Both the position numbers and the translations under genes were made by a program. Below are positions 2,922-64,000 of a stretch of DNA of 64,000 nt, piece by piece. Each line of letters begins with the position of its first letter. Position 1 is the stretch's first letter. The stretch is from positions 15,601 through 79,600 of IMG/VR virus record IMGVR_UViG_3300022407_004352. One strand, given 5' to 3'. The notes below the pieces were generated by a model. That model worked only from the letters and a program-made list of their open reading frames with translations. It searched no databases and was not told the origin of the DNA. The stretch comes from a virus (Duplodnaviria > Caudoviricetes).

Positions 2922-3169
2922 ACATCACAACATTTAAAATACCGGCAAGAATTTACCGGGATGGAGATCAGATCAAGCTAGAGCTTGATGAATCCAAGAA
3001 AGAGTTAGTAGGTTCTGAAAGACTATCAGCCGATGATATACAATCATTACCGGGTTTGGCTCAGAAGATCGGGGCAGATAATGAATCTGCTAGAGCGATA
3101 TTGAGAAAAACTTTACTATCAAGTGAGGAAGAGGCCAATAACTTCCTTATCATGAAGATACTGTCTTAG
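2918..3169 (+). CDS. Hypothetical protein
   Basis: ORF coupled to the previous gene by ATGA overlap. Confidence 0.6.
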   Translation: MNITTFKIPARIYRDGDQIKLELDESKKELVGSERLSADDIQSLPGLAQKIGADNESARAILRKTLLSSEEEANNFLIMKILS

Positions 3170-3194
3170 CGGATAGTTTTTTTTTATTTTGGGG

Positions 3195-3232
3195 GTGGAA
3201 GCTGGATTAATTTCTAGCTTCCACTTATTTTT
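3195..3232 (+). terminator. Intrinsic terminator-like hairpin
   Basis: GTGGAAGCTGGA/TCTAGCTTCCAC stem with T-rich tracts on both sides. Confidence 0.6.
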
Positions 3233-3303
3233 TATGGTAAATTTAGCTTGATAACCCAATGCTATTTATAAATGAATTTTCAAACTTAAATTAATTAATT
3301 TTT

Positions 3304-3729
<426 letters not shown>

Positions 3730-3746
3730 ACCCAAACCCCGGAAAG

Positions 3747-3775
3747 AGGAGAGCCTGAAAACTCTCCTTTTTTTG
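3747..3775 (+). terminator. Intrinsic terminator
   Basis: AGGAGAG/CTCTCCT stem followed by a T-run. Confidence 0.8.
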
Positions 3776-3797
3776 TATATATGAGGAGCTATAAGAA

Positions 3798-3980
3798 ATG
3801 AATACCAAAGAACTTGAAGAACTTCGCCAAAAAGTTTGGCAGTTTATGAACTACATCAAAGATAAGGACCTTAACCCAGCCGGTACTCTTAGAACAACGG
3901 AAACCTTCTATGAGGTTATTCTAAGAGAGCAGAGTATGCAGAATCACTTTAACTCAACCGAAGACAAGATTTCCACATGA
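3798..3980 (+). CDS. Hypothetical protein
   Basis: ORF, coupled to the next gene. Confidence 0.6.
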   Translation: MNTKELEELRQKVWQFMNYIKDKDLNPAGTLRTTETFYEVILREQSMQNHFNSTEDKIST

Positions 3981-4363
3981 AAAGATTTAAAGACTTAGTA
4001 AAGGGTGACAAGATATACATCGTGGAACCAATGACCGACAACGTAAGAGAGAGTACGGTAGTAGAATCCTTTGTACATCCCAAATCCTTAACAAAGAAGG
4101 TTTGGGTAGTAAAGTTCTACAAGTTATCTAATATCAGCTCTTTAACAGAGGAGAAGATGGAGATAGCCCGGAAGTATGATAGCGATGTAGTCTTAACAAT
4201 GTTTGCTGAGGCTGTAGAATCCCTGATCATAGCAAAGATACCATCCAAGAATGGCATAGCAGTAACCGCATTTAGTACAGACAAAGAAAAACTAGAATCA
4301 TGGGTAAAGAAATCGGGAAGGGATACAGCCGAGATGCTCAAACTTCTGAAAGGATCGGCTTAG
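3977..4363 (+). CDS. Hypothetical protein (N-terminal SH3-like beta pattern)
   Basis: ORF with ATGA overlap; FKDLVKGDKIYIV start. Confidence 0.65.
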   Translation: MKRFKDLVKGDKIYIVEPMTDNVRESTVVESFVHPKSLTKKVWVVKFYKLSNISSLTEEKMEIARKYDSDVVLTMFAEAVESLIIAKIPSKNGIAVTAFSTDKEKLESWVKKSGRDTAEMLKLLKGSA

Positions 4364-4617
4364 ACTTGGATATTGAGGATGCCTCATCACTTTATTTAAT
4401 CCTCAAGTACTTTATAGTGGATTATGATAATAGACTTCAACGTATAGAGGAAGATACGGACTTGAGCGAAGAAACTAGGAAGGATGCCAAAGAAATCGAG
4501 TCTCAATTGTTGGAAGATGCAAAAAACATAGCAGAGGAAGTAGGCGAGATATTGGTAGAGTTAGATAAGCCCAAAAAACTAATCTTTACTAAACCCTCAT
4601 GGAAGCAAGATCAGTAG
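4300..4617 (+). CDS. Hypothetical acidic helical protein
   Basis: ORF; true start uncertain. Confidence 0.55.
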   Translation: MGKEIGKGYSRDAQTSERIGLDLDIEDASSLYLILKYFIVDYDNRLQRIEEDTDLSEETRKDAKEIESQLLEDAKNIAEEVGEILVELDKPKKLIFTKPSWKQDQ

Positions 4618-5234
4618 TAAAACCTAAGAACCCCAAATCCTACAACAAGATAGCCGAAAAAATATACACCCTACACCGGGGTATGGTGGATCACCAATTA
4701 AAGTATCCCAAGTTTACTAAAATCCACAAAACTCAACTATACTCACTTTATCCAAAGAACATACCCCAGGCTTATGAGCCATTGATGCATCTAATCTGTA
4801 GGTATACTGCTACTCGGGGTAAGATGATTCGATTGATAGACCCCGAAAAACCCTACCCTGTTAAATCTCTATCCATCATCGGCGGATACAAAGATGTGTT
4901 ATTAGCAGGTTATTATTGTCAAATGGTTTTTGAGTATATAACTATTGCTTCAGAAAGAAGGTCTTTAATTTTAAAGAGAAGAGCTAAGCAGGAAAGAGTA
5001 AGAGTGAATAGGGGAACACTGGATGAAAAGAAAAGAAGATATACCAAACATACCAATCGAGTTGCAACAGAGTGGACTAAGAAACTTACCAAGTCCACTG
5101 AGGACATTTTCAGAGAACTATTAAAGGACACCGAAGATATTTATCCGGAGGCTTTTTTGATTATTAAAAATAAGTTAGGAATTTTGAGAAACGAAATAAT
5201 TAAAAAACAAATATGGAGAAAACCCACACATTGA
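4599..5234 (+). CDS. Hypothetical protein
   Basis: 211-aa ORF in a tightly packed operon. Confidence 0.65.
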   Translation: MEARSVVKPKNPKSYNKIAEKIYTLHRGMVDHQLKYPKFTKIHKTQLYSLYPKNIPQAYEPLMHLICRYTATRGKMIRLIDPEKPYPVKSLSIIGGYKDVLLAGYYCQMVFEYITIASERRSLILKRRAKQERVRVNRGTLDEKKRRYTKHTNRVATEWTKKLTKSTEDIFRELLKDTEDIYPEAFLIIKNKLGILRNEIIKKQIWRKPTH

Positions 5235-5608
5235 GGTCTTTGCTTTATGGCTGGGAATCTGCCAAGAAGAGATTGGAGGCAGCATCCGCCGATAAAAGCA
5301 AACTAGCTACAAGGTATGGAGTGATGTATTGGAAGAGAGAAGTACAAGCTGCGGAAAGAGCAGAGGAACATTGGAGAACTAAAATTTCAAAGTTTGGTTC
5401 AGGTAAGCTAATAAAAGTTACAGGGCAGGTGAGGGTAGTTATGGGGGGTTTAGGTTTAAATCAAGAGTTTGAGTTATTTATGGTCAATGTATCCAAAGAG
5501 GATGTATTGGAGTACTTAAAAGCTCAAGCGGATAATAGCTTACAGCAAATTTTGCTCGAGACTATTGAACTCAAAGAATTCCAAACAGGAAGATTAATAA
5601 TTGTTTAA
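5213..5608 (+). CDS. Hypothetical protein
   Basis: ORF in a packed operon. Confidence 0.65.
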   Translation: MEKTHTLRSLLYGWESAKKRLEAASADKSKLATRYGVMYWKREVQAAERAEEHWRTKISKFGSGKLIKVTGQVRVVMGGLGLNQEFELFMVNVSKEDVLEYLKAQADNSLQQILLETIELKEFQTGRLIIV

Positions 5609-5629
5609 CTTTAAAAAACCCAGTTTTCT

Positions 5630-6250
5630 ATGAAAACCAAAAAAGGCGGGCTGACCTATGACTCAGCCAAAACTGAATTAGCTTCAGTAAAGGAAGAGCT
5701 AGGAGTAGCATCTTCTGAGTTGAAAGATTTTCTCAAAAGCAATAAGCTGAAGAGAGATGAAGATCACTCAAAGCACTCGGACAAGAAAATCGCTAAGCAA
5801 TACAATGCTCTAGTAGCAGCTGTAGATGCTAAGCAGAATCGGAAGGATGAGCTCTTGACGTTCTTAAAGAACAACAAACCGGAGCCAAAAGAAAGAGAGT
5901 CCAAATACAACTACCCATCGGAAGTTGAATCCACTTTGGACAAAAAGAAATACCGTGCATCCATGCGATCCAATGCAAAGAAAGCCGGTGTGGAATTGGA
6001 TACTTATCTGGCTGACCCCAAGAAGTATGCAAAGGTGATTGCAGAGAAGGAGAAGGCAAGAGCTGAGAAATTGGCTAAGAAAACAGCTCCTAAGAAAAAG
6101 AAGAAAGCTGCTGAAGAAGAGGCTCCGGTAAAGAAACTGAAGTTGAAGAAATCAGCTGAGGAAGAAGCTCCCAAAAAGAAACTGAAGAAGAAAGTTAAAG
6201 CAGCTCCGGCACCGGAAGCTGAAGAGGAAGAAGCTGGGGGTGAAGATTAA
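5630..6250 (+). CDS. Lys/Ala/Glu-rich histone-H1-like protein with YxYP...KKYR motif
   Basis: Coiled coil, KYNYPSEVESTLDKKKYRASMR, AEEEAP repeats within poly-Lys tails; followed by a terminator. Confidence 0.7.
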   Translation: MKTKKGGLTYDSAKTELASVKEELGVASSELKDFLKSNKLKRDEDHSKHSDKKIAKQYNALVAAVDAKQNRKDELLTFLKNNKPEPKERESKYNYPSEVESTLDKKKYRASMRSNAKKAGVELDTYLADPKKYAKVIAEKEKARAEKLAKKTAPKKKKKAAEEEAPVKKLKLKKSAEEEAPKKKLKKKVKAAPAPEAEEEEAGGED

Positions 6251-6276
6251 TTCTCATTAAAACCATGAACTGCATA

Positions 6277-6313
6277 GAAAATAGCCAGCGGGATTATCCT
6301 TCTGGCTATTTCT
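6277..6313 (+). terminator. Intrinsic terminator-like hairpin
   Basis: AAATAGCCAG/CTGGCTATTT stem. Confidence 0.65.
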
Positions 6314-6333
6314 GTTATTAACCGTACCATACT

Positions 6334-6846
6334 ATGTTAACTGAACAATACACACAGATACTAAAGGATATTGCTGCTAAACCCACTATGGAAAAACTGA
6401 TTGAGTATCTGAAAGAACTCAACTTTGAATTCATGGACATGGAGCTAGCTCAAAAACTAGAGCCGGAGATAAAATGCGAGAAGGCCTGGATGCTGCGATA
6501 TTCATACTTAGTTCGTAGATATGAAAAACAACGATTTGATTTTGACCTTATGATTGGGGTAAGATTCATGGGTATAAGAATGCCTAAATATCTGGTATTC
6601 ATTAACAAAGACTATGCTGAAACTTTCGATAAGCCCTGGCATAAACCCCAAGAGTTCAACCAACGAAAGAAGAAGGTGTTATTGAAATTTCCGGATGAGC
6701 TGGATATTGAGGAAAGAAAGGAATGGCGGAAATATCATGACTGGTGGAAAAAGGGAAGAAAGATGAATGATGAGCAGATGGCATGGTATATGAAATTTAA
6801 ACCCATGATCAAGAACTTGGATAAAGAATTTGACCACCTTAATTAA
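6334..6846 (+). CDS. Hypothetical protein
   Basis: 170-aa ORF. Confidence 0.65.
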   Translation: MLTEQYTQILKDIAAKPTMEKLIEYLKELNFEFMDMELAQKLEPEIKCEKAWMLRYSYLVRRYEKQRFDFDLMIGVRFMGIRMPKYLVFINKDYAETFDKPWHKPQEFNQRKKKVLLKFPDELDIEERKEWRKYHDWWKKGRKMNDEQMAWYMKFKPMIKNLDKEFDHLN

Positions 6847-6863
6847 CTATAAAACCCATGTAT

Positions 6864-6871
6864 TAAATTTG
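6864..6871 (+). promoter_or_regulatory. Possible -7 box (TAAATTTG)
   Basis: TAnnTTTG match in an intergenic gap. Confidence 0.4.
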
Positions 6872-6958
6872 CATAAATGATCAAAGAAAAGATTACCAAG
6901 GTGACCTATCAGATAGGTTTCTTTTTGGAACCCGAATATGTAACCCATTTTTTAAATT

Positions 6959-7309
6959 ATGAATATGCTAAGCAGACAACAAAAAGCAATAATCAGAAAG
7001 GCAGCAAAACTGCAGGAAGAAAGTTTTATGCGAATAATCACAGAAGGAAGACTTAGAGAAATTATGCAAGAGTTACAGGATGAGGGTTATGAAGTTACGA
7101 TGAGTGACCTGGAGGCTAGGGTATCTAAGGATTTGGAGGTATGGGATTCTGTAAAGGATAATCCGGACGGATTTCTCCACATACTGGATGAGGTTAATTT
7201 GGGAATGATAAGGCATGTTCTAGTGAATGAATTTCGATCCACGGATCATATCAAAGGATTACATCGAAAATTAAACTTATTTGAGGAAGTATCTAAATTT
7301 CAAAACTAA
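6959..7309 (+). CDS. Hypothetical protein
   Basis: ORF coupled to the KTSC gene (TAATG overlap). Confidence 0.65.
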   Translation: MNMLSRQQKAIIRKAAKLQEESFMRIITEGRLREIMQELQDEGYEVTMSDLEARVSKDLEVWDSVKDNPDGFLHILDEVNLGMIRHVLVNEFRSTDHIKGLHRKLNLFEEVSKFQN

Positions 7310-7632
7310 TGGCAAAGAAGAAAACCAAGGTAACGGAGGTTCAAGGAATCCCACCTTTACCAAAAGAAGTAAAAGAAGAAGTTACCGTAGTGCTAAAGAA
7401 ATCTACTGAAGCCCCGGAAATTGCGCGCCTACCTGTAGAATCATCCACAATCGCTGCACTGGGCCATGATGGTGATACGTTGGTAATTGAGTTTAAGAGC
7501 GGTCCAGTATGGAGCTATACCCCCATAAGTAAGGATACCTACCTTAATATGCTGGATTCGGATTCTTTGGGCAGGTATTTTCATCTGAACATAAAATACA
7601 ACAGAGAGATCACTGCCACTAGATTGGCATAG
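7309..7632 (+). CDS. KTSC-domain protein
   Basis: PVESSTIAALGHDGDTLVIEFKSGPVWSY...YLNMLDSDSLGRYFHLNIK matches the KTSC pattern. Confidence 0.85.
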   Translation: MAKKKTKVTEVQGIPPLPKEVKEEVTVVLKKSTEAPEIARLPVESSTIAALGHDGDTLVIEFKSGPVWSYTPISKDTYLNMLDSDSLGRYFHLNIKYNREITATRLA

Positions 7633-7689
7633 AAAGAACTAGAGAGAATTGAGTTACTATTTATTATTAATCATAAAAACCCAGTATCT

Positions 7690-7875
7690 ATGGAAACAAT
7701 GAGTCAGTATTTAAAATTGAGAGAGTTGGTTGACTCTCTTGAGCCCCATGCCGTAAAGGTAAAGGAGAAACACAACAAGGCAGCCGGAACAAGGTTGAGA
7801 AAAGGCCTGCAGGAAGTTAAGAAACAAGCGCAATTTTTGCGCGCCCAAATCATGGAAGATTTGAAAAAGGCTTAA
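7690..7875 (+). CDS. Histone H1-like protein (Hc1-family, short Bacteroidota type)
   Basis: LRELVDSLE...KHNKAAGTRLRKGLQEVKKQAQ..R is the family signature (NKAAGTRxRK). Confidence 0.85.
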   Translation: METMSQYLKLRELVDSLEPHAVKVKEKHNKAAGTRLRKGLQEVKKQAQFLRAQIMEDLKKA

Positions 7876-7883
7876 ACCAAACT

Positions 7884-7966
7884 TGAACGGGGCTTATGTC
7901 AGGAAGGTCTGTCTGCGGATAAGACTCTGGAGCCTGCAGGTCCATAAGACCCCGTTCATTTTATTT
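7884..7966 (+). ncRNA. Extended multi-stem hairpin with U-tail (structured RNA or attenuator/terminator)
   Basis: 15-bp basal stem TGAACGGGGCTTATG/CATAAG(A)CCCCGTTCA, inner CAGG/CCTG and GTCT/AGAC stems, then TTTTATTT. Confidence 0.4.
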
Positions 7967-7999
7967 CCATGGCTAATTGATTCCGAGTATTCCGATTCT

Positions 8000-8037
8000 C
8001 ATATTTGCATTAATAAAAAATAAATCAATCACCTATG
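8000..8037 (+). promoter_or_regulatory. Promoter-leader cassette (CATATTTG variant + AAATCAATCA leader)
   Basis: One mismatch from TAnnTTTG; leader shared with other cassettes. Confidence 0.5.
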
Positions 8038-8319
8038 CAAAAATTAACTTATTACCGATTCCAAGTAGGCAAGTTTGCGATCCTTAAAGAAGATGAGATT
8101 CATGAGGGTAAAAAGATTCTTGCCGGAACATTAATCAAGATTTTAAACTTTCCATTCAAAGTACGCAAGGGCGACCAAGACGATGGTTATATACACAGAC
8201 CCAAGAAGGGGGTGGAGACCTGGGTAGTTTATGACCGATTCATTCATGGGATTGATGTGGAAGGTAACCATGTAAGACCATCTTTATCTAAATGCCTTAG
8301 AACCAGAAAATCCTTTTAA
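8035..8319 (+). CDS. Hypothetical protein
   Basis: First ORF after the cassette. Confidence 0.65.
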   Translation: MQKLTYYRFQVGKFAILKEDEIHEGKKILAGTLIKILNFPFKVRKGDQDDGYIHRPKKGVETWVVYDRFIHGIDVEGNHVRPSLSKCLRTRKSF

Positions 8320-8321
8320 TT

Positions 8322-8693
8322 ATGAAATACCTATTTTATATCATTATTGCCCTGATGTTCTTTCATTTCCTGACGAAAGATTCCAACCCCCCACCCGAGA
8401 AATTCAAACCCTTTCCGGAAGTAAGGTGGGATTCTACCAAAGGGGATGCAGCCTATTTTGACTGGGAGCAAAATCGTTACGTATATAAACATGAACTTAA
8501 GCCCGAAGGAAAGAGGGAAAAGATACCCCTTACTGCTAAACCCGATTCCTATGTACAAATCGTTGAACCCGGTTATGCAATCAAAGATGACTATGAGATT
8601 CAAAAACCCGATCCGGAAATCATTATTGCTGGAAAGAGGTATAGGCAAAGGAAATTGGCTAATGGCGATATAAAATTAATCCTTGTAAGATGA
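8322..8693 (+). CDS. Putative membrane-anchored/exported protein
   Basis: N-terminal hydrophobic segment MKYLFYIIIALMFFHFL. Confidence 0.6.
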   Translation: MKYLFYIIIALMFFHFLTKDSNPPPEKFKPFPEVRWDSTKGDAAYFDWEQNRYVYKHELKPEGKREKIPLTAKPDSYVQIVEPGYAIKDDYEIQKPDPEIIIAGKRYRQRKLANGDIKLILVR

Positions 8694-8956
8694 GAACCAT
8701 GAAAGAACTACTTCAGCTAATATTAGGAAACGAAAAATTGTTCGAGACGGGACTTTGTCGATGGGCTGTAATACTTAGGCTACGGGGTTTGATTACCTTT
8801 GAGGAATATCTAAGGATAATAAACCATATATTTCTTAATAAGCCCGATCATGTGATCACAGCTTTATCTACATATTGGTGGGATTCAGGGTTAAAAGAAC
8901 TTAGAATTACTTGGTTAAAGGAACAGATAAAACTATTGGATAATGACCATAAATGA
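8690..8956 (+). CDS. Hypothetical protein
   Basis: Coupled ORF. Confidence 0.6.
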   Translation: MRTMKELLQLILGNEKLFETGLCRWAVILRLRGLITFEEYLRIINHIFLNKPDHVITALSTYWWDSGLKELRITWLKEQIKLLDNDHK

Positions 8957-20582: not shown

Positions 20583-20610
20583 GCTACATACCTTACCATA
20601 TATAGTGGAA

Positions 20611-20760
20611 TTTTGCGCGCTTATAGGTCAGGTATGGCCAAAGGGCCCAATTTGGCCAGCTGGTTGCGAAGTTCGGTATGGCCATTTTAGGTATGGCCAG
20701 CCGGCCGGACCCGCCACGAGGAGAGGGTATGGCAGAAAGCCATGAATTTTAGGGTACAAA
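20611..20760. repeat. GC-rich module A (4x GGTATGGC, 6x GGCC)
   Basis: GGTATGGC at 20631, 20675, 20690 and 20726; homologous to 21431-21490. Confidence 0.8.
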
Positions 20761-20788
20761 GCCCCTTGATTGAGATATGCATTATATC

Positions 20789-20822
20789 TATATTTGATCC
20801 ATAATTAAAAATCAATCAAATG
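20789..20822 (+). promoter_or_regulatory. Promoter-leader cassette (TATATTTG + ATAATTAAAAATCAATCAAATG)
   Basis: Exact -7 box. Confidence 0.7.
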
Positions 20823-21065
20823 AAAAAGAATGACCTTATTACCCAATCTCTCATAGATGATCTAAGAGAGAAGATTCAGAAAACCCCGGATTTAGGAATC
20901 CGACAGACCCACCTCAATATTCTTGAGGTTATGGAGGCATGCATTGGAAATTCATTAGATTCCCTTTTGAATACCCTCTTTGATGAATGGGATGAAGATG
21001 AGGCAATGTATGGCTTCTCTCCAAAAGAATTCCTGATATTTGATACCATGTACCTAAGAGATTAA
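20820..21065 (+). CDS. Small acidic hypothetical protein
   Basis: First ORF of a cassette; acidic C-half (FDEWDEDE). Confidence 0.65.
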   Translation: MKKNDLITQSLIDDLREKIQKTPDLGIRQTHLNILEVMEACIGNSLDSLLNTLFDEWDEDEAMYGFSPKEFLIFDTMYLRD

Positions 21066-21070
21066 AAGCC

Positions 21071-21367
21071 ATGAAAAAGATAAAAGACCATGATATTGAG
21101 CTCATCGGCATTAAGATCAAAGCCCGATTAGAAGAAGCCCGAACCAGCAACCATCATTTTATTGCCTTCTATGAAAGGATGCAGAAAATTCAGAATGAGG
21201 CTGAGTCCCTAATAACCCATTGGAAAGAAAACCCTGTGGACCATGAGGGAATCCTGAATGATAGCCTCAATACCCTCATCGAAGAGATGCTGGACATACC
21301 GGACCTGAATCATGCAGACCTTGCCCAATATCTTATACACTACTACACCATAACCGAAAAGGCATGA
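21071..21367 (+). CDS. Hypothetical helical protein
   Basis: ORF followed by a terminator. Confidence 0.65.
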   Translation: MKKIKDHDIELIGIKIKARLEEARTSNHHFIAFYERMQKIQNEAESLITHWKENPVDHEGILNDSLNTLIEEMLDIPDLNHADLAQYLIHYYTITEKA

Positions 21368-21383
21368 TTGATTGGTTTGGATT

Positions 21384-21405
21384 AGCCCCGAAAGGGGCTT
21401 TTCTT
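21384..21405 (+). terminator. Intrinsic terminator
   Basis: AGCCCC-GAAA-GGGGCT-TTTCTT. Confidence 0.9.
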
Positions 21406-21430
21406 GTGTTATTAGCCTATTAATATATCA

Positions 21431-21565
21431 ATTTGCGCGCCTAACACGACCCATAGGGTATTGGGCCCACACTGGCCGACTGGTCTGGCATGGCCGAGAC
21501 TGGCCTTGATCCACCGAAATTGGCGCGCTTGGTCGAGAGGTTTTAGGCACCAGGCCAGAGGGGCA
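21431..21565. repeat. GC-rich module B (2x GCGCGC, 5x GGCC)
   Basis: TTTGCGCGC-N22-GGGCCCA-N3-TGGCC-N2-CTGGT, same spacing as module A, 820 bp downstream. Confidence 0.8.
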
Positions 21566-21597
21566 GGAAATTTGCCTCGAAAATAGATTTTTGAAAT

Positions 21598-21644
21598 TCG
21601 GATATTTTTCCGATATTTGATCAAATAAAAAAATCAATCAAATG
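21598..21644 (+). promoter_or_regulatory. TCGGA-N6-TCCGA palindrome + GATATTTG -7-like box + AAAAATCAATCAAATG leader
   Basis: Palindrome 21598-21613 overlaps the box at 21612-21619. Confidence 0.6.
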
Positions 21645-21821
21645 AAAAATTCAAAAAAATCATTTTATCCGGAATCATTAAATTCGGATCAATTAGAAAT
21701 TCTTATGCATATCAATGCAAAGGAAGAGAAAAAAGAAAATCTGATCTATGCATGGATCGGATTTATCCTATTTGAAATATGCATTATTGCCCCTATCTTT
21801 TATCTTTATTATCTTGCATAA
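21642..21821 (+). CDS. 59-aa membrane protein (not in ORF track)
   Basis: MKNSKKSFYPESLNSDQLEILMHINAKEEKKENLIYAWIGFILFEICIIAPIFYLYYLA; canonical leader; C-terminal TM helix. Confidence 0.75.
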   Translation: MKNSKKSFYPESLNSDQLEILMHINAKEEKKENLIYAWIGFILFEICIIAPIFYLYYLA

Positions 21822-21822
21822 A

Positions 21823-21851
21823 TCGGATTAATATCCGATATTTGAATTATG
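21823..21851 (+). promoter_or_regulatory. Second TCGGA-N6-TCCGA palindrome + GATATTTG box
   Basis: Palindrome 21823-21838 and box 21837-21844, just before the ATG at 21849. Confidence 0.5.
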
Positions 21852-22265
21852 AAAAAATCAATCAAAAAATCAGAAGAGATTCAAGGAATCAAATCTGAAA
21901 TCAAAATCAAAAAATCTCAAAAATTGGATTCTGCAAATCTTTCAAAGATCAAAGAAGAATCTAAAGGATCAGAAGAGAAAAAAGGGAATCTTTATATTGG
22001 ATTTTCTTCCTTATCTTCAAATGATCAGAAAAAAGAGAGATCAAAATTAAGGAGAAAATTGGAAAATTTCAGAAAGGAGATTTTAGGGAAAGATCGGAAA
22101 AAGGAAGAGAAGGAAGAGGGATTAAAATCTTTCATTCAATTCTATAAAAAGAATTGGAAGATTCAAGATTTTAAATTTGAAAATTTCTCTCATCAAAAGG
22201 ATGAAGATTTTAAATCCGATTGGATCGAAATTCTTTCCAATGCAAAGAAATCCTTAGAGAAATAA
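21849..22265 (+). CDS. Lys/Glu/Ser-rich putative DNA-binding protein lacking Thr, Val, Pro and Cys
   Basis: LYIG..LSSNDQKKERSKLRRKL resembles the motif of 12475-12783; followed by a terminator. Confidence 0.75.
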   Translation: MKKSIKKSEEIQGIKSEIKIKKSQKLDSANLSKIKEESKGSEEKKGNLYIGFSSLSSNDQKKERSKLRRKLENFRKEILGKDRKKEEKEEGLKSFIQFYKKNWKIQDFKFENFSHQKDEDFKSDWIEILSNAKKSLEK

Positions 22266-22282
22266 ATAAGGATTGAAAAATG

Positions 22283-22318
22283 AAATCCGATAGATTTATC
22301 CTCTATCGGATTTTTTTT
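22283..22318 (+). terminator. Intrinsic terminator
   Basis: AAATCCGATAGA/TCTATCGGATTT stem + T-run. Confidence 0.85.
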
Positions 22319-22347
22319 ATCCTTTCCATCCTACACACCCTATCCTG

Positions 22348-22418
22348 TTTCTACTGCCATAAAATTTATGTAAAGCCCCCTATAAGCACCCCGGGTTTTT
22401 CTACTGCCATAAAATTTA
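22348..22418. repeat. Two 21-bp direct repeats TTTCTACTGCCATAAAATTTA
   Basis: 22348-22368 and 22398-22418, period 50 bp. Confidence 0.9.
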
Positions 22419-25513: not shown

Positions 25514-25995
25514 TTTAATAATTTTTCAATAACCCGAATAGAAGATTGATAGGCTCTTATATTTACCTCAAGAGTTGATTTATCTCTTACAAGATGCATC
25601 ACCTCGGTATTCAGCTCCCCAATCTTCTCCTGTTGACTTTCCAACTCTTGCCGTAAGTTTAGAATGGTCTCATCTTGTTGGTAGATTGTTTCTTGTCTTC
25701 TACGCAGAACATCACTCATGGATTCTTCCTGTTCTTTCACATGGACGGCCTTGTAATCCTCAGCATACTTTAGACGTACTGACTCTTCTGCTTCAGGCAG
25801 GTCAACAACAAGTATGGGGGTCTGCGGTTTGTTAATCTCAAAATCTTTCGGGAGCATACTTAACAAACCATGTAACTCTGCGGCTAGATGAGATGCATCC
25901 TCTATACTAATCTTAGTATAGAGTGTTTCCATCTCGGTTAGAAATGTAATATAGATTGCATTGTTTTCGAGTTTTAGTTGAATGTTCTTGCTCAT
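25510..25995 (-). CDS. Coiled-coil hypothetical protein
   Basis: C-terminal heptad pattern. Confidence 0.6.
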   Translation of the reverse strand: MSKNIQLKLENNAIYITFLTEMETLYTKISIEDASHLAAELHGLLSMLPKDFEINKPQTPILVVDLPEAEESVRLKYAEDYKAVHVKEQEESMSDVLRRRQETIYQQDETILNLRQELESQQEKIGELNTEVMHLVRDKSTLEVNIRAYQSSIRVIEKLLK

Positions 25996-26654
25996 GTGTT
26001 TGGGTTTATATGGTTTAACTTAGCTAATTTCTGGTATTTATCTAACCATTCGGGTTTTGATCCGTAGTTCCAATGGCATATATCTTTTTTATAGGATGCA
26101 TAGTAAAGCCGATAGTTTTCTACCGGGTCATCACTGAATTGACATTCTATGGGCATTACAGAGGGGGGCTTAGTAAGAAAATCGTTAGGGAAATCCTTTT
26201 CAGTTAAAGGCCAAGGATTCCCCAGTTTATCTCTTTGAAGATTGGGTTCACATAGACGAATTACTTCAAGGCTCTTATGTATCTTCTCATACCTAGCCAT
26301 ATACTCATCTACTAAGAAATAACCCAATCTTAGTAACCAGATATAGTTTTGAAGGGATTTTCTAGCCCATAAAACGGAAGGGTGGTTTGGATGAGTAATA
26401 AGGTATATTCTTGGACCTCCACCGGTTTCCCCATGAAGTACATGTGCATAGCTTTTCCACTTCTTGTTCTTTTCCGGAGTTAAACCAAAATCCTTATCTA
26501 GTCCATCCAGTGAGTATACACCCGGATACCCCCGTTTAATTCTTACAACAGTGGATAGAATCTGAGCAGTTTCCAATACCATTTTGACTACATGTTTATC
26601 ACTATGGTATTGGGCTGCTTTATTAGCTTCTCGGTCTAGGAAAAAGATATTCAT
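25992..26654 (-). CDS. Pyrimidine-dimer DNA glycosylase-like (DenV/Pyr_excise-related) protein
   Basis: MNIFFLD...A..H.DKHVVKM.LE.AQIL...THPNHPS..W.....NY.WL...G..L..EY..RY.K.H. Confidence 0.75.
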   Translation of the reverse strand: MNIFFLDREANKAAQYHSDKHVVKMVLETAQILSTVVRIKRGYPGVYSLDGLDKDFGLTPEKNKKWKSYAHVLHGETGGGPRIYLITHPNHPSVLWARKSLQNYIWLLRLGYFLVDEYMARYEKIHKSLEVIRLCEPNLQRDKLGNPWPLTEKDFPNDFLTKPPSVMPIECQFSDDPVENYRLYYASYKKDICHWNYGSKPEWLDKYQKLAKLNHINPNT

Positions 26655-27390: not shown

Positions 27391-28365
27391 ATGAATTTAA
27401 GAGTACTGGGTGTCTGCGGGGGTAATGGTGTTATATTACACCCTTTCAAAGATAATTTAATAGCAAACATTGAACCCCGGGCAATCTTTCATACCCCTGG
27501 CCAAATTCAGTGGCAATTAAATTTTCCGGGTGTTCCCATGAGAAAAGAACTACAACCCTACTCGGATATTGACATTATCATAGGAGCTCCGGACTGTGGC
27601 CATTCCTCTGTCCTATCTTATTCTAGGGCTAAGAAGTTATCTGATCCGAAAGATAATAAGAGTTTCAATCTATTCCTAGCAAGTATCATTAAATACAGGC
27701 CACTAATTTTTATGATGGAGAATCTACCAAAGATGCTAGACATGGTAGACCTTGAGAAAATACTTCCGGAATATAGACTACAAATAAAGGTAGAGTCAGT
27801 TTCACTATGGGGTAACTCTCAAAAATCCCGAGTTAGGTTGGTAATAGTGGGAATCCGGAAAGATACTGGGTTAAAAATTAAGTGGCCAAAAAAGCCAGAT
27901 ATATTCTCTGAAGTGAGAGAGTTACTTGAAGGATTAGGACCCGAAGAGATACCATCACTTTGCCATGTTAGAGAGTCTGATGAATCCTTTGTACCTCTTT
28001 ACACGAAGACTGCTCGAAGGATAACAGTTAAAAAAGCTAGAGAAATTTGGCAAACGGACTTTGTGGATAGTAGAAGATGGAAAGTACCCCATACTAAGAT
28101 GGTTAACCAACCCGGAGTTTATCGGTTATTTTGGAGTGATTTACCATTAACTGTAAGAAAGCAGAGTCGGCAATTTGATCCCGAAGGATATATGCTTACT
28201 CCACGGGATATTGCTAGGATTCAAGGTATTCCGGATGAGTTTGAACTATGGTACGAGCCTAAACGACACTTATATTGTATAAATAAAGCCCGAGCTACTT
28301 GTGCAAAAACTCCACCCTATGAAATCGGGGAATGGTTTAAAAGGCAAATATCTAAACTTCATTGA
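27391..28365 (+). CDS. DNA cytosine-5 methyltransferase (divergent)
   Basis: Motif I VCGGNG, IV GAPDCGHSS, VI MENL, VIII GNSQKSRVRLVIVG, IX LTPRDIARIQGIPDEF, X AKTPP. Confidence 0.85.
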   Translation: MNLRVLGVCGGNGVILHPFKDNLIANIEPRAIFHTPGQIQWQLNFPGVPMRKELQPYSDIDIIIGAPDCGHSSVLSYSRAKKLSDPKDNKSFNLFLASIIKYRPLIFMMENLPKMLDMVDLEKILPEYRLQIKVESVSLWGNSQKSRVRLVIVGIRKDTGLKIKWPKKPDIFSEVRELLEGLGPEEIPSLCHVRESDESFVPLYTKTARRITVKKAREIWQTDFVDSRRWKVPHTKMVNQPGVYRLFWSDLPLTVRKQSRQFDPEGYMLTPRDIARIQGIPDEFELWYEPKRHLYCINKARATCAKTPPYEIGEWFKRQISKLH

Positions 28366-61705: not shown

Positions 61706-63160
61706 ATGACTAAATCGACCTCTAGTAAATTTCTCTTTGATCTTGACTTCCAATATGAGATACTTCGCTTTACTTTAAAAGACCGAGACGGATATAAGGC
61801 TCTTCAACTTTACAAATTTGACTACTTTGATTTGGAAGAGCAAAAGGTAATAGCCCGAGCTGTACATAAATTCTTTAAACGAACCGGAAGAGTTCCCAAA
61901 TCTGCAGCTCTGCTCAATGAGGAACTAAATGGCCTATTTAAAAGCAGGGACTATGCCCAGGCATTTCTACAAAAGGATAGAGCAGCCATAAAGAAGCGAG
62001 TAAATTCTTTGTACAAGGGTCTTCTAAGAGAGCCCGATGAAATCTTAGCCAAAGTAAGAACCTTTGCTTCCTATGTAGAGTTTAAAAAGGTTCTTGAAGA
62101 AGTTAATCTATCCGACTACACCCAGTACGCTACCTACCTGAAAAGAATTCAGACTGCTATACACATGGGCATGAAGATTAATGAGCGCCAAGGTTTATTC
62201 ATGGTTAACTCTGCTCAAGCTAGGTTTCTAGGTAGAAAATCCAATGATGAATTAATCATACCCACAAGAATAAGACAGGTAGACCGACTCACAAATGCCG
62301 GGGGCTATACTCGGGGAAGCTTAATAGTGATTATAGATAAACCAAAGAAGGGGAAAACTCTATTACTAGTTAACATTGCAAGGTTCTTTATATCCAAACG
62401 ATCAGAGAAAGCACTCTCTTCCAATAAGAAGGTTATATACTTTGACCTGGAGAATGGAGAACAGAATATATCCTACCGAGTGGATCAAGCTCTGGCTAGA
62501 GCTAATAAATTGGAGGTAATTCAAGGCCGACATGATGAGAAACTTAAGAAGATTTACCGTAAGCTAAAGAGGTTGGGTGGAGAACTCTACGTAAAAAGAA
62601 TGCCGGCTTATTGCACTACCCACGATTTCCAAAAGGTAATGGATGATCTTTACTCAGAATATGGAATGAAATTCGATGTAGGAGTGATTGATTACATGGG
62701 ACTAATGGGTTCTATATCGGGAAAGAAAGATGACTTTGAAAGAATATCAGATGCTTACCTGGATACAAAAAACTGGGCAGAGAAGAATGAATTAGATATG
62801 GTATTTACTGGACACCATGTTAAAAGAGAAGCCTACTCGAGAAGAAGTAGCAAATACAAATCGGATGATCTAGCTAAATGCATTGACATTGAAAGACATG
62901 TGGATGCTATCTATGGCATACAGCAGAATGAGGATGAGGAAGCAGCTAACATAATGAGGTTGGAACTTATTGTACAAAGAGACGGGTATCCATCCGGAAG
63001 AGCCCTATTCAATGTTAACCTACAGGAACAAAGATTAACTGAATTCTCCACTGCTGAGGTGGATGAGTATAATGATACTATAGGAAAGAATGTAAGGGAT
63101 GAACATGACTCGGGGCCAGAGAGGAAACGGAAAACCTTTAAGACTGATTTTCAGGAATGA
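61706..63160 (+). CDS. dnaB: Replicative DNA helicase (DnaB-like)
   Basis: Walker A KPKKGKT, FDLE, Walker B VIDYMGL, H.V.R, DAIYGIQQ, VQRDG. Confidence 0.88.
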   Translation: MTKSTSSKFLFDLDFQYEILRFTLKDRDGYKALQLYKFDYFDLEEQKVIARAVHKFFKRTGRVPKSAALLNEELNGLFKSRDYAQAFLQKDRAAIKKRVNSLYKGLLREPDEILAKVRTFASYVEFKKVLEEVNLSDYTQYATYLKRIQTAIHMGMKINERQGLFMVNSAQARFLGRKSNDELIIPTRIRQVDRLTNAGGYTRGSLIVIIDKPKKGKTLLLVNIARFFISKRSEKALSSNKKVIYFDLENGEQNISYRVDQALARANKLEVIQGRHDEKLKKIYRKLKRLGGELYVKRMPAYCTTHDFQKVMDDLYSEYGMKFDVGVIDYMGLMGSISGKKDDFERISDAYLDTKNWAEKNELDMVFTGHHVKREAYSRRSSKYKSDDLAKCIDIERHVDAIYGIQQNEDEEAANIMRLELIVQRDGYPSGRALFNVNLQEQRLTEFSTAEVDEYNDTIGKNVRDEHDSGPERKRKTFKTDFQE

Positions 63161-64000
63161 GATTAAACAGAGAGATAGCCGGGAAATTAGCCCAGTACTT
63201 TAAGGATAAACTAGATGTTAAACCCCATAGGACTGGATGGTTACGTCAGGGTACTTGTCCATCCTGTGGCAAGGAGAAAAAATTTGGTGTAAATCCTTTA
63301 TTCGATAGGACTAATTGCTTTGCTTGCGGGTATCATCCGAAACCCTTTGATCTATTAATGCACCTAGAGGGTTTTTCTACTTGGGTAGAAGCTCATGGAT
63401 ATTTAAAATCCTTTGAAGGAACAGACTACAGGGACTCACCCGTAGAGTTAATAAAGGAAAGGGAAGTAAGATTACCCGAATCTTACAAACTACTTATACT
63501 GGGGGACTCTCATATGGCTAACATGGCTAGGAGTTATATGCTAAAACGGGGATACAAAAATTTAACTGCCTTAGCGATGAAAGGGGTTGGTTATTGTACT
63601 ACGGGGGATTTTGCGGGCAGGATCATTATACCCTACTACAGAGCAGGAAGATTGATATATTATAATGCTAGGCAATTTATAAAGATCGGAGCTGGTGGAC
63701 CTCATAAGAACCCGGGCATGGATTTAACCGGATTAGGAAAGTCAATGGTCATGTTTAATTCAGATGCTCTATACATTTATGATAGTTGTTATCTGGTAGA
63801 ATCTGCTACGAATGCTTTAACCCTGGGGGATAGAGCTTTTAGTACCGGAGGTAAGATTCTTTCTAATTACCAAATATCCGATATAATAAAAAGCCCATGC
63901 AAACGAATTACTATCATACTCGACCCGGATGCTCAGTGGGAAGCTCTTAAAACGGGGCTTGAATTGTCAAGACATAAGAGGGTAAGAATTGTTTTCCTCC
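63157..64000 (+). CDS. dnaG: DNA primase (3'-truncated; not in ORF track)
   Basis: MRLNREIAGK...CPSCGK...NCFACG zinc finger; TOPRIM VESATNA and ILDPD. Confidence 0.88.
   Translation, partial: MRLNREIAGKLAQYFKDKLDVKPHRTGWLRQGTCPSCGKEKKFGVNPLFDRTNCFACGYHPKPFDLLMHLEGFSTWVEAHGYLKSFEGTDYRDSPVELIKEREVRLPESYKLLILGDSHMANMARSYMLKRGYKNLTALAMKGVGYCTTGDFAGRIIIPYYRAGRLIYYNARQFIKIGAGGPHKNPGMDLTGLGKSMVMFNSDALYIYDSCYLVESATNALTLGDRAFSTGGKILSNYQISDIIKSPCKRITIILDPDAQWEALKTGLELSRHKRVRIVFL

Follow-up and report, generated by a model that had tools for sequence, protein, structure and literature searches.

The window analysed here is a stretch of 64,000 nucleotides from IMG/VR virus record IMGVR_UViG_3300022407_004352, corresponding to bases 15601-79600 of the 79.6-kb virus contig G000. 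Positions are those of the window unless another contig is named, and the dinucleotide recount was made on its letters. Between 21550 and 22333 the window carries a two-gene island from which the dinucleotides AC and GT are absent. The features of the island are as follows.

21420-21549: GC-rich module B, with a AATTTGCGCGC motif and GGCC pairs; it contains AC/GT and forms the left border of the island.
21550-22333: AC/GT-free zone (class I), taking in the whole putative immediate-early unit, its promoter DNA and ~14 bp past the T-run of the terminator.
21598-21642, + strand: promoter cassette 1, with the palindrome TCGGA-N6-TCCGA, a -7-like box GATATTTG at 21613-21620 and the leader AAAAATCAATCAAA at 21629-21642; the start is predicted.
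21642-21821, + strand: gene 1, encoding a predicted tail-anchored membrane protein of 59 amino acids with a C-terminal hydrophobic helix.
21822-21848, + strand: promoter cassette 2, with the palindrome ATCGGAT-N4-ATCCGAT and the box GATATTTG.
21849-22265, + strand: gene 2, encoding a basic helical protein of 138 amino acids (isoelectric point 9.7).
22282-22321, + strand: strong predicted intrinsic terminator, a 13-bp stem followed by a T-run.

A direct recount gave no AC and no GT over the 784 bp, as the preliminary description had stated. The free stretch is bounded by an AC at 21549 and by ACACAC from 22333. From the base composition of the island itself, 78.4 occurrences of the two dinucleotides would be expected (AC 42, GT 37), and 74.9 from the window-wide frequency of 0.0956. 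The Poisson probability of finding none is ~1e-34, and the minimum count in 20,000 mononucleotide shuffles was 51. The second-longest AC/GT gap in the 79.6-kb genome is 218 bp (3466-3684), the remaining gaps are all ≤95 bp, and none of the other symmetric dinucleotides has a similar gap anywhere in the genome. The 218-bp gap, the only other window of this kind, is a trivial low-complexity one: it falls within an open reading frame (ORF; 3304-3729) in which a GAA/GAG repeat of ~200 bp encodes a poly-Glu tract. In two control phages no AC/GT-free island was found: the longest gaps are 120 bp in MT121964 (75.5 kb) and 94 bp in the 150 kb scanned of Flavobacterium phage immuto. A literature search returned no report of dinucleotide-free phage genes, and we found no description of complete dinucleotide exclusion in phage genes to date.

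The exclusion is not shared by longer words, since GATC (10 copies), CCGG (1), TCGA (2) and TGCA (7) are all present in the island; the retention of the first three had been claimed before and was reproduced in the recount. Its cost is borne by the proteins, both of which lack Thr and Val.

Syntenic contigs were reached through homologues of a 294-residue protein encoded upstream, and the corresponding unit proved to be AC/GT-free in six further lineages, over 480-1350 bp.

G001/L008: 770 bp AC/GT-free; a 76-kb IMG/VR contig with genome-wide protein identity of 35-70%.
L002/L003: 783 bp, free but for one AC.
L005: 648 bp AC/GT-free.
L012: at least 482 bp AC/GT-free.
L022/L023: 1014 bp AC/GT-free.
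L024/L025: 1349 bp AC/GT-free, with four genes.

The genes for homologues of the 138-residue protein share only 63-75% nucleotide identity, so the AC/GT-free state is held by selection and not inherited by identity. Thirteen island genes from six lineages, 1325 codons in all, were pooled for a codon count. The ratio of NAT to NAC codons is 224:1, the codons GGT, AGT, CGT and TGT are missing, and there is no Thr or Val. Codon boundaries of the type A|C and G|T do not occur at all, against ~58 and ~63 expected, and the promoters, spacers and terminators of the islands are likewise AC/GT-free. These codon, amino-acid and boundary counts confirm that the exclusion overrides coding. The constraint acts at the level of the nucleic acid and not of the protein; a cause at the level of tRNA or amino acids is ruled out, as codon boundaries and non-coding DNA follow the rule too. 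The L024 island (3715-5064), with genes for 42, 75, 127 and 141 amino acids, adds further unrelated proteins without Thr or Val.

The state is graded among the relatives. L009 and L011 are nearly free, with 4 AC/GT in the gene for the 138-residue homologue, L014, L016 and L013 are partially depleted, and L026 has normal AC/GT. The gut relative MT121964, used above as a control, has the same replication, thymidylate synthase (TS) and methyltransferase genes and no island. The expectation that homologues would also lack Thr and Val holds for 11 of the 42 clusters of the 138-residue family, and the rest contain these residues. The tree of this family is poorly resolved: the best tree has at least five changes of the Thr/Val-free state, of which the well-supported branches force only one, and the AC/GT-free state, scattered as it is on such a tree, looks labile. 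Outside the islands, the loci of L002, L009, L011, L022 and L026 are depleted of AC/GT in all gene classes (observed/expected 0.6-0.8), and G001 has no such overall depletion (about 1.0 and 0.83). Lineages differ in how strong this 'field' against AC/GT is.

It had also been noted that after 21600 GC occurs in the island only as TGC. This applies to 41 of the 44 GC steps in the islands of five lineages, where the only contexts are TGCA and TGCC. The L022 island has GC in all contexts, with no such restriction, and because it does not follow the rule we regard the TGC preference as secondary.

The limits of the exclusion follow those of a transcription unit. The two promoter cassettes are nearly identical, their GATATTTG box belongs to the Bacteroidota -7 type, and five further early promoters in the window share the leader AAAAATCAATCAAA. 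With its own promoters, two ORFs that have homologues and a terminator, all of them predicted, the island has the make-up of an autonomous transcription unit. In every lineage the free zone begins with ~50-95 bp of DNA ahead of the -7-like box and extends 9-20 bp beyond the T-run of the terminator, so that it coincides with the DNA that a polymerase must bind and traverse, the presumably untranscribed part included. The gene map agrees with the earlier placing of the island where two transcription blocks converge, with + strand early genes on its left and, on its right, a converging minus-strand block followed by the late block.

A second class of purged cassettes lies just upstream of the island, and in these GT is missing on the sense strand only.

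20600-20756: GC-rich module A, similar to module B and upstream of the class II cassette.
20757-21375, + strand: class II cassette of the window; sense GT 5 against 29 expected, AC 26, of which 20 are ACC.
20757-20832: promoter of this cassette, free of AC and GT; its genes lie at 20820-21065 and 21071-21367.
21384-21399, + strand: class II terminator.
L022 5837-7416 (1579 bp): sense GT 0 against 79 expected, AC 83.
L002 10826-11622: sense GT 1 against 33 expected, AC 33.

GT on the sense strand is AC on the template strand. The promoters of these class II cassettes are free of both dinucleotides; the free stretch measures 134 bp in L022 and 77 bp in the window, and L002 has two, of 47 and 75 bp. 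The reverse pattern, loss of sense AC with GT kept, was seen in no region. Depletion of sense GT rises along the + strand early block toward the island and ends abruptly where the converging minus-strand block begins. The early region of a relative contains a gene of the RE_MjaI family, similar to restriction endonucleases (L002 8984-9505; L004 195-680), which has an unusually high sense AC (observed/expected 1.15) amid depleted neighbours; no homologue was seen in the window.

Since the purge extends to both strands and to promoter DNA that is presumably not transcribed, the constraint works at the level of DNA. It is tied to transcription, because its limits are those of the promoter-to-terminator span plus roughly a polymerase footprint and because the gene bodies are asymmetric between template and non-template strands. 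We tentatively favour, at somewhat short of probable, an explanation in which AC sites on the infecting genome block host RNA polymerase and the first-expressed unit is kept clean of them. The island would then be an immediate-early transcription unit with host-type promoters, selected to be free of 5'-AC-3' on both strands, and AC sites on the infecting genome would carry something that stops the host RNA polymerase, which we infer to be the sensitive reader. This could be a phage-made base modification in AC context, most plausibly on cytosine, or else a host-inflicted adduct, base excision or nick at the AC step. A block on the template strand would halt elongation, and in promoter DNA a block on either strand would interfere. 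Purging would be complete in the unit read first and fastest, confined to the template strand and the promoters in the next cassettes, and slight at most in later genes. The membrane protein and the basic helical protein may lift the block or counteract whatever brings it about. A lesion that can be repaired, in contrast to a double-strand cut, would leave the phage a genome still worth saving. It is possible, although rather doubtful, that this phage family writes or suffers a genome-wide chemical change at AC/GT steps that blocks host RNA polymerase, with a clean immediate-early cassette and template-strand-clean delayed-early ones as the only DNA readable on entry and the products of the clean cassette unlocking the rest.

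The preliminary description had offered, as one possibility, a modification in AC/GT context from which the first genes are exempt so that host RNA polymerase can read them, and this comes close to the explanation favoured here. The variant in which McrBC, reading R-5mC, is the agent to be evaded fails as a general rule. AC and most GC steps, that is purine-C steps, are indeed missing from five islands, but L022 has GC in every context, TGCA is tolerated, and a double-strand reader could not produce the strand asymmetry of class II. Phage enzymes that mark a base in a very short context are known from the hypermodification systems, such as the GpC-specific C5-methyltransferase with phage TET, DpdA with 7-deazaguanine at GA/GGC, and Mom. 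G000, for its part, encodes a C5-methyltransferase and a homologue of dCMP-type TS, by which a modification might be made. We know of no hypermodification system reported to have modification-free early genes, nor of any description of an AC context. The thymidine-hypermodification paper gives no GT context.

The genes in question form a cytosine-directed set, and the block could be a phage-made mark. The late block starts with a C5-cytosine DNA methyltransferase homologue (27391-28365, + strand; Pfam 50 bits), an amidase and a T4-like large terminase (TerL). A putative TerS had been placed next to the island, which was loose: a possible TerS is found 5-8 kb to the right, as are the methyltransferase, the amidase and TerL. 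The methyltransferase, which heads this late/packaging block, has the GGNG, PDC, ENL and QxRxR motifs of PF00145, kept in five homologues, and might be what writes a context-specific mark. Ahead of the window, 15.6 kb of the contig code for a helicase, a dUTPase_2-type NTP pyrophosphatase, two TS-like proteins, a dCMP deaminase, PolA, a dNMP-kinase-like protein, gp32, a RecA/UvsX-like recombinase, a flap nuclease and Mre11/Rad50; a cytosine-directed nucleotide module can be placed there at genome bases 3052-8780 (L001), made up of the pyrophosphatase, both TS-like genes, the deaminase, PolA and the dNMP-kinase-like gene. One TS homologue (L001:4739-5524) has Asp at the site where Asn specifies dUMP (E. 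coli N177, L. casei N229), as expected of the dCMP type (T4 gp42). The closest PDB entry, the L. casei TS N229D mutant, has FD where this protein has ND, and the CMP hydroxymethylase MilA was also matched. The second TS-like gene is very divergent, with weak similarity only (E 0.03). The Asp-bearing homologue suggests a cytosine-directed nucleotide pathway, and the module as a whole a 5-substituted cytosine in DNA. A search found no match in G000 to PF01702 or PF06508 (DpdA/preQ0), but its sensitivity is low, as the G001 homologues of TS had escaped a search of this type. A 220-residue protein (25992-26654, minus strand), conserved in L002, matches phrog_624 (E 6e-48) and weakly Pyr_excise, a pyrimidine-dimer DNA glycosylase family, and could bear on base excision or exchange.

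Several considerations weigh against a polymerase-blocking mark at AC. The TS-like genes and the methyltransferase also occur in relatives without an island (MT121964, and the methyltransferase in L026), so they are not sufficient, and the agent is possibly host-specific. Modification at AC is itself a postulate. Bacterial RNA polymerase usually reads past C5 substituents on cytosine, so one has to suppose a bulky or unusual adduct, or a lesion. AC/GT is near normal in the remaining early genes, replication genes included, and these too must be read from parental DNA. Transcription starts and timing are predictions from sequence motifs, and by sequence and structure prediction the island proteins appear to have no recognisable family or fold.

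Avoidance could instead operate on RNA, with transcripts that lack GU (and, in the island, AC) escaping an endoribonuclease, be it a host abortive-infection toxin or a phage host-shutoff ribonuclease (RNase). The class II cassettes, purged on the sense strand only, would yield GU-free mRNA, and the constraint overrides coding and covers whole transcripts, much as ACA-less, MazF-resistant mRNAs are whole messages without a short nuclease word for which codon choice pays. ACA-less mRNAs, however, involve the RNA strand and transcribed sequence only, whereas here both strands and the presumably untranscribed promoter DNA are free in every lineage, for 50-95 bp 5' of the -7 box (class I) or 47-134 bp around the promoters of class II (starts being predicted). 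A single RNase would moreover need two unrelated dinucleotide targets in class I, and we know of none with GU/AC dinucleotide specificity, so that we consider an RNA-level cause unlikely. It is quite unlikely that the island is leading DNA, as the preliminary description had proposed: a genome end that enters first, purged of a host nuclease target so that an inhibitor is made before the remaining genome enters. Strong selection against a dinucleotide target stands from that proposal, and the complete purge, the self-contained unit, the repeat-rich GC modules beside it and the depletion graded toward it would all suit such a segment. T5 first-step-transfer DNA and the T7 early region with Ocr are likewise first-expressed genes without the host target, from which counter-measures are made before further exposure. 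Their targets, however, are 4-6-bp restriction sites at a fixed genome end, whereas the word excluded here is a dinucleotide that costs two amino acids, 4-bp palindromes are kept, the zone is exactly one transcription unit, its neighbours are strand-specific, and nothing points to a genome end. The T4-like type to which TerL belongs is usually associated with headful packaging without fixed ends. The two near-complete contigs, G000 and G001, are cut at different places, the two ends of G000 are adjacent on the G001 map, and G000 has no terminal repeat. A zinc-finger/Toprim primase ORF (63157-63999) is open at the end of the contig and finds its stop four codons after the contig start; taken with the map of G001, this indicates that the assembly is circular or permuted and that the ends are not true ones. 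The contigs of five relatives continue through the island without a break, transcription of its genes runs toward the supposed end, and a symmetric double-strand nuclease target cannot give the GT-only exclusion on the sense strand of class II. Palindrome avoidance in phage genomes, in which short restriction-site words are likewise lost by selection, differs in being genome-wide, statistical, strand-symmetric and concerned with 4-6-mers, whereas the present exclusion is local, absolute, of a 2-mer and follows the transcription strand.

The same primase raises another possibility, as 5'-GT(N)-3' in the template is the start site for the primases of both T7 and T4. GT-free strands would go unprimed, sparing the displaced strand of heavily transcribed early units from unscheduled priming. 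The enzyme is a Cys4 zinc-finger primase encoded from 63157 to the contig end, beside a DnaB-like helicase, and the strand that lacks GT in class II is the displaced sense strand. This would nevertheless leave unexplained why promoters are purged on both strands and gene bodies on one; the primase is absent when immediate-early genes are read, a priming-free zone has no established benefit, and GT specificity has to be assumed for this primase, all of which makes the idea highly improbable. An origin without selection, through context-specific deaminase hypermutation, low-complexity expansion or an assembly error, is scarcely credible. The island is A/T-rich with many short repeats and AT is mildly enriched (observed/expected 1.19), but this enrichment is far too small to absorb ~340 lost sites. 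The same state recurs in independent assemblies from different samples and lineages, the proteins are conserved (a family of 42 clusters with a confidently folded domain), nucleotide divergence of 25-37% would have re-created many AC/GT, and class II is depleted on the wrong strand for transcription-associated deamination. Three further candidates were rejected. A bleomycin-like strand break at G-Py predicts loss of sense AC in class II, where loss of sense GT is seen; avoidance of a CRISPR protospacer-adjacent motif would be strand-symmetric, and guarding one locus does not save a genome; and the DRT3 defence system, which synthesizes poly(GT)/(AC) DNA, has no evident mechanistic link.

Whatever the agent, the exclusion removes two amino acids altogether from several proteins and is conserved in diverged phages. 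It marks, with single-base sharpness, DNA that must stay free of that agent. The island thus offers a handle on a possible new AC/GT-specific modification or host attack, on its effect on RNA polymerase and on the first proteins needed. Were the genome-wide change at AC/GT steps considered above to prove real, dinucleotide content would encode, by a principle new to biology, both the timing of gene expression and self-protection. The signature needs no annotation, and a scan for dinucleotide-free windows could find immediate-early genes, counter-defence genes and hidden DNA chemistries in uncultured phages.

The two island proteins give few indications of function. Gene 1 has homologues in L002, L005, L009, L011 and L006, and it may be speculated that the 59-residue membrane protein acts like the small immediate-early exclusion proteins of other phages. 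The 138-residue protein has a disordered N-terminus rich in Lys, Ser and Glu and a C-terminal three-helix domain that is confidently predicted (pLDDT >90) and has the conserved motifs K..R.K[IL]RR.L..F and FYK.NW.[IV].DFK. Neither protein matched a family in Pfam or PHROGs, as was the case for most of ~40 other ORFs. Foldseek searches with the 138-residue model against PDB, BFVD and a protein atlas returned only uncharacterised viral proteins, a tblastn search of isolated phages with this protein gave no match, and single-protein scans of IMG/VR with the 294- and 138-residue proteins gave nothing.

The DNA flanking the purged cassettes has recurrent features of its own. GC-rich non-coding modules with a AATTTGCGCGC-like motif and many GGCC pairs lie 5' of each purged cassette in all lineages (window 20600-20756 and 21420-21549; L002 10780-10930 and 11660-11812; L005 4540-4770; L022 7540-7810). 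Folded as RNA they gave z-scores of -0.8 to -2.9 and no clear structure, and Rfam and tRNA scans of the window found nothing. Just to the right of the island are two exact 21-nt direct repeats, TTTCTACTGCCATAAAATTTA, at 22348-22368 and 22398-22418. In several relatives a conserved AC/GT-dense motif, ttcACACCGTGTgcc, directly follows the island terminator (L008 10455-10475, L024 5060-5075, L022 8824-8836, L014 960-975). If AC sites block polymerase, this motif might serve as an insulator between the converging units.

On the early side, the leader AAAAATCAATCA(AA) stands just 5' of the ATG in seven + strand early genes (8016, 13720, 17391, 18741, 20807, 21629 and 21853, the copy at 21853 being inside coding sequence). 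It usually lies 10-20 nt past an (A)TTTG box, and leader and box together look like a promoter/leader class of early operons.

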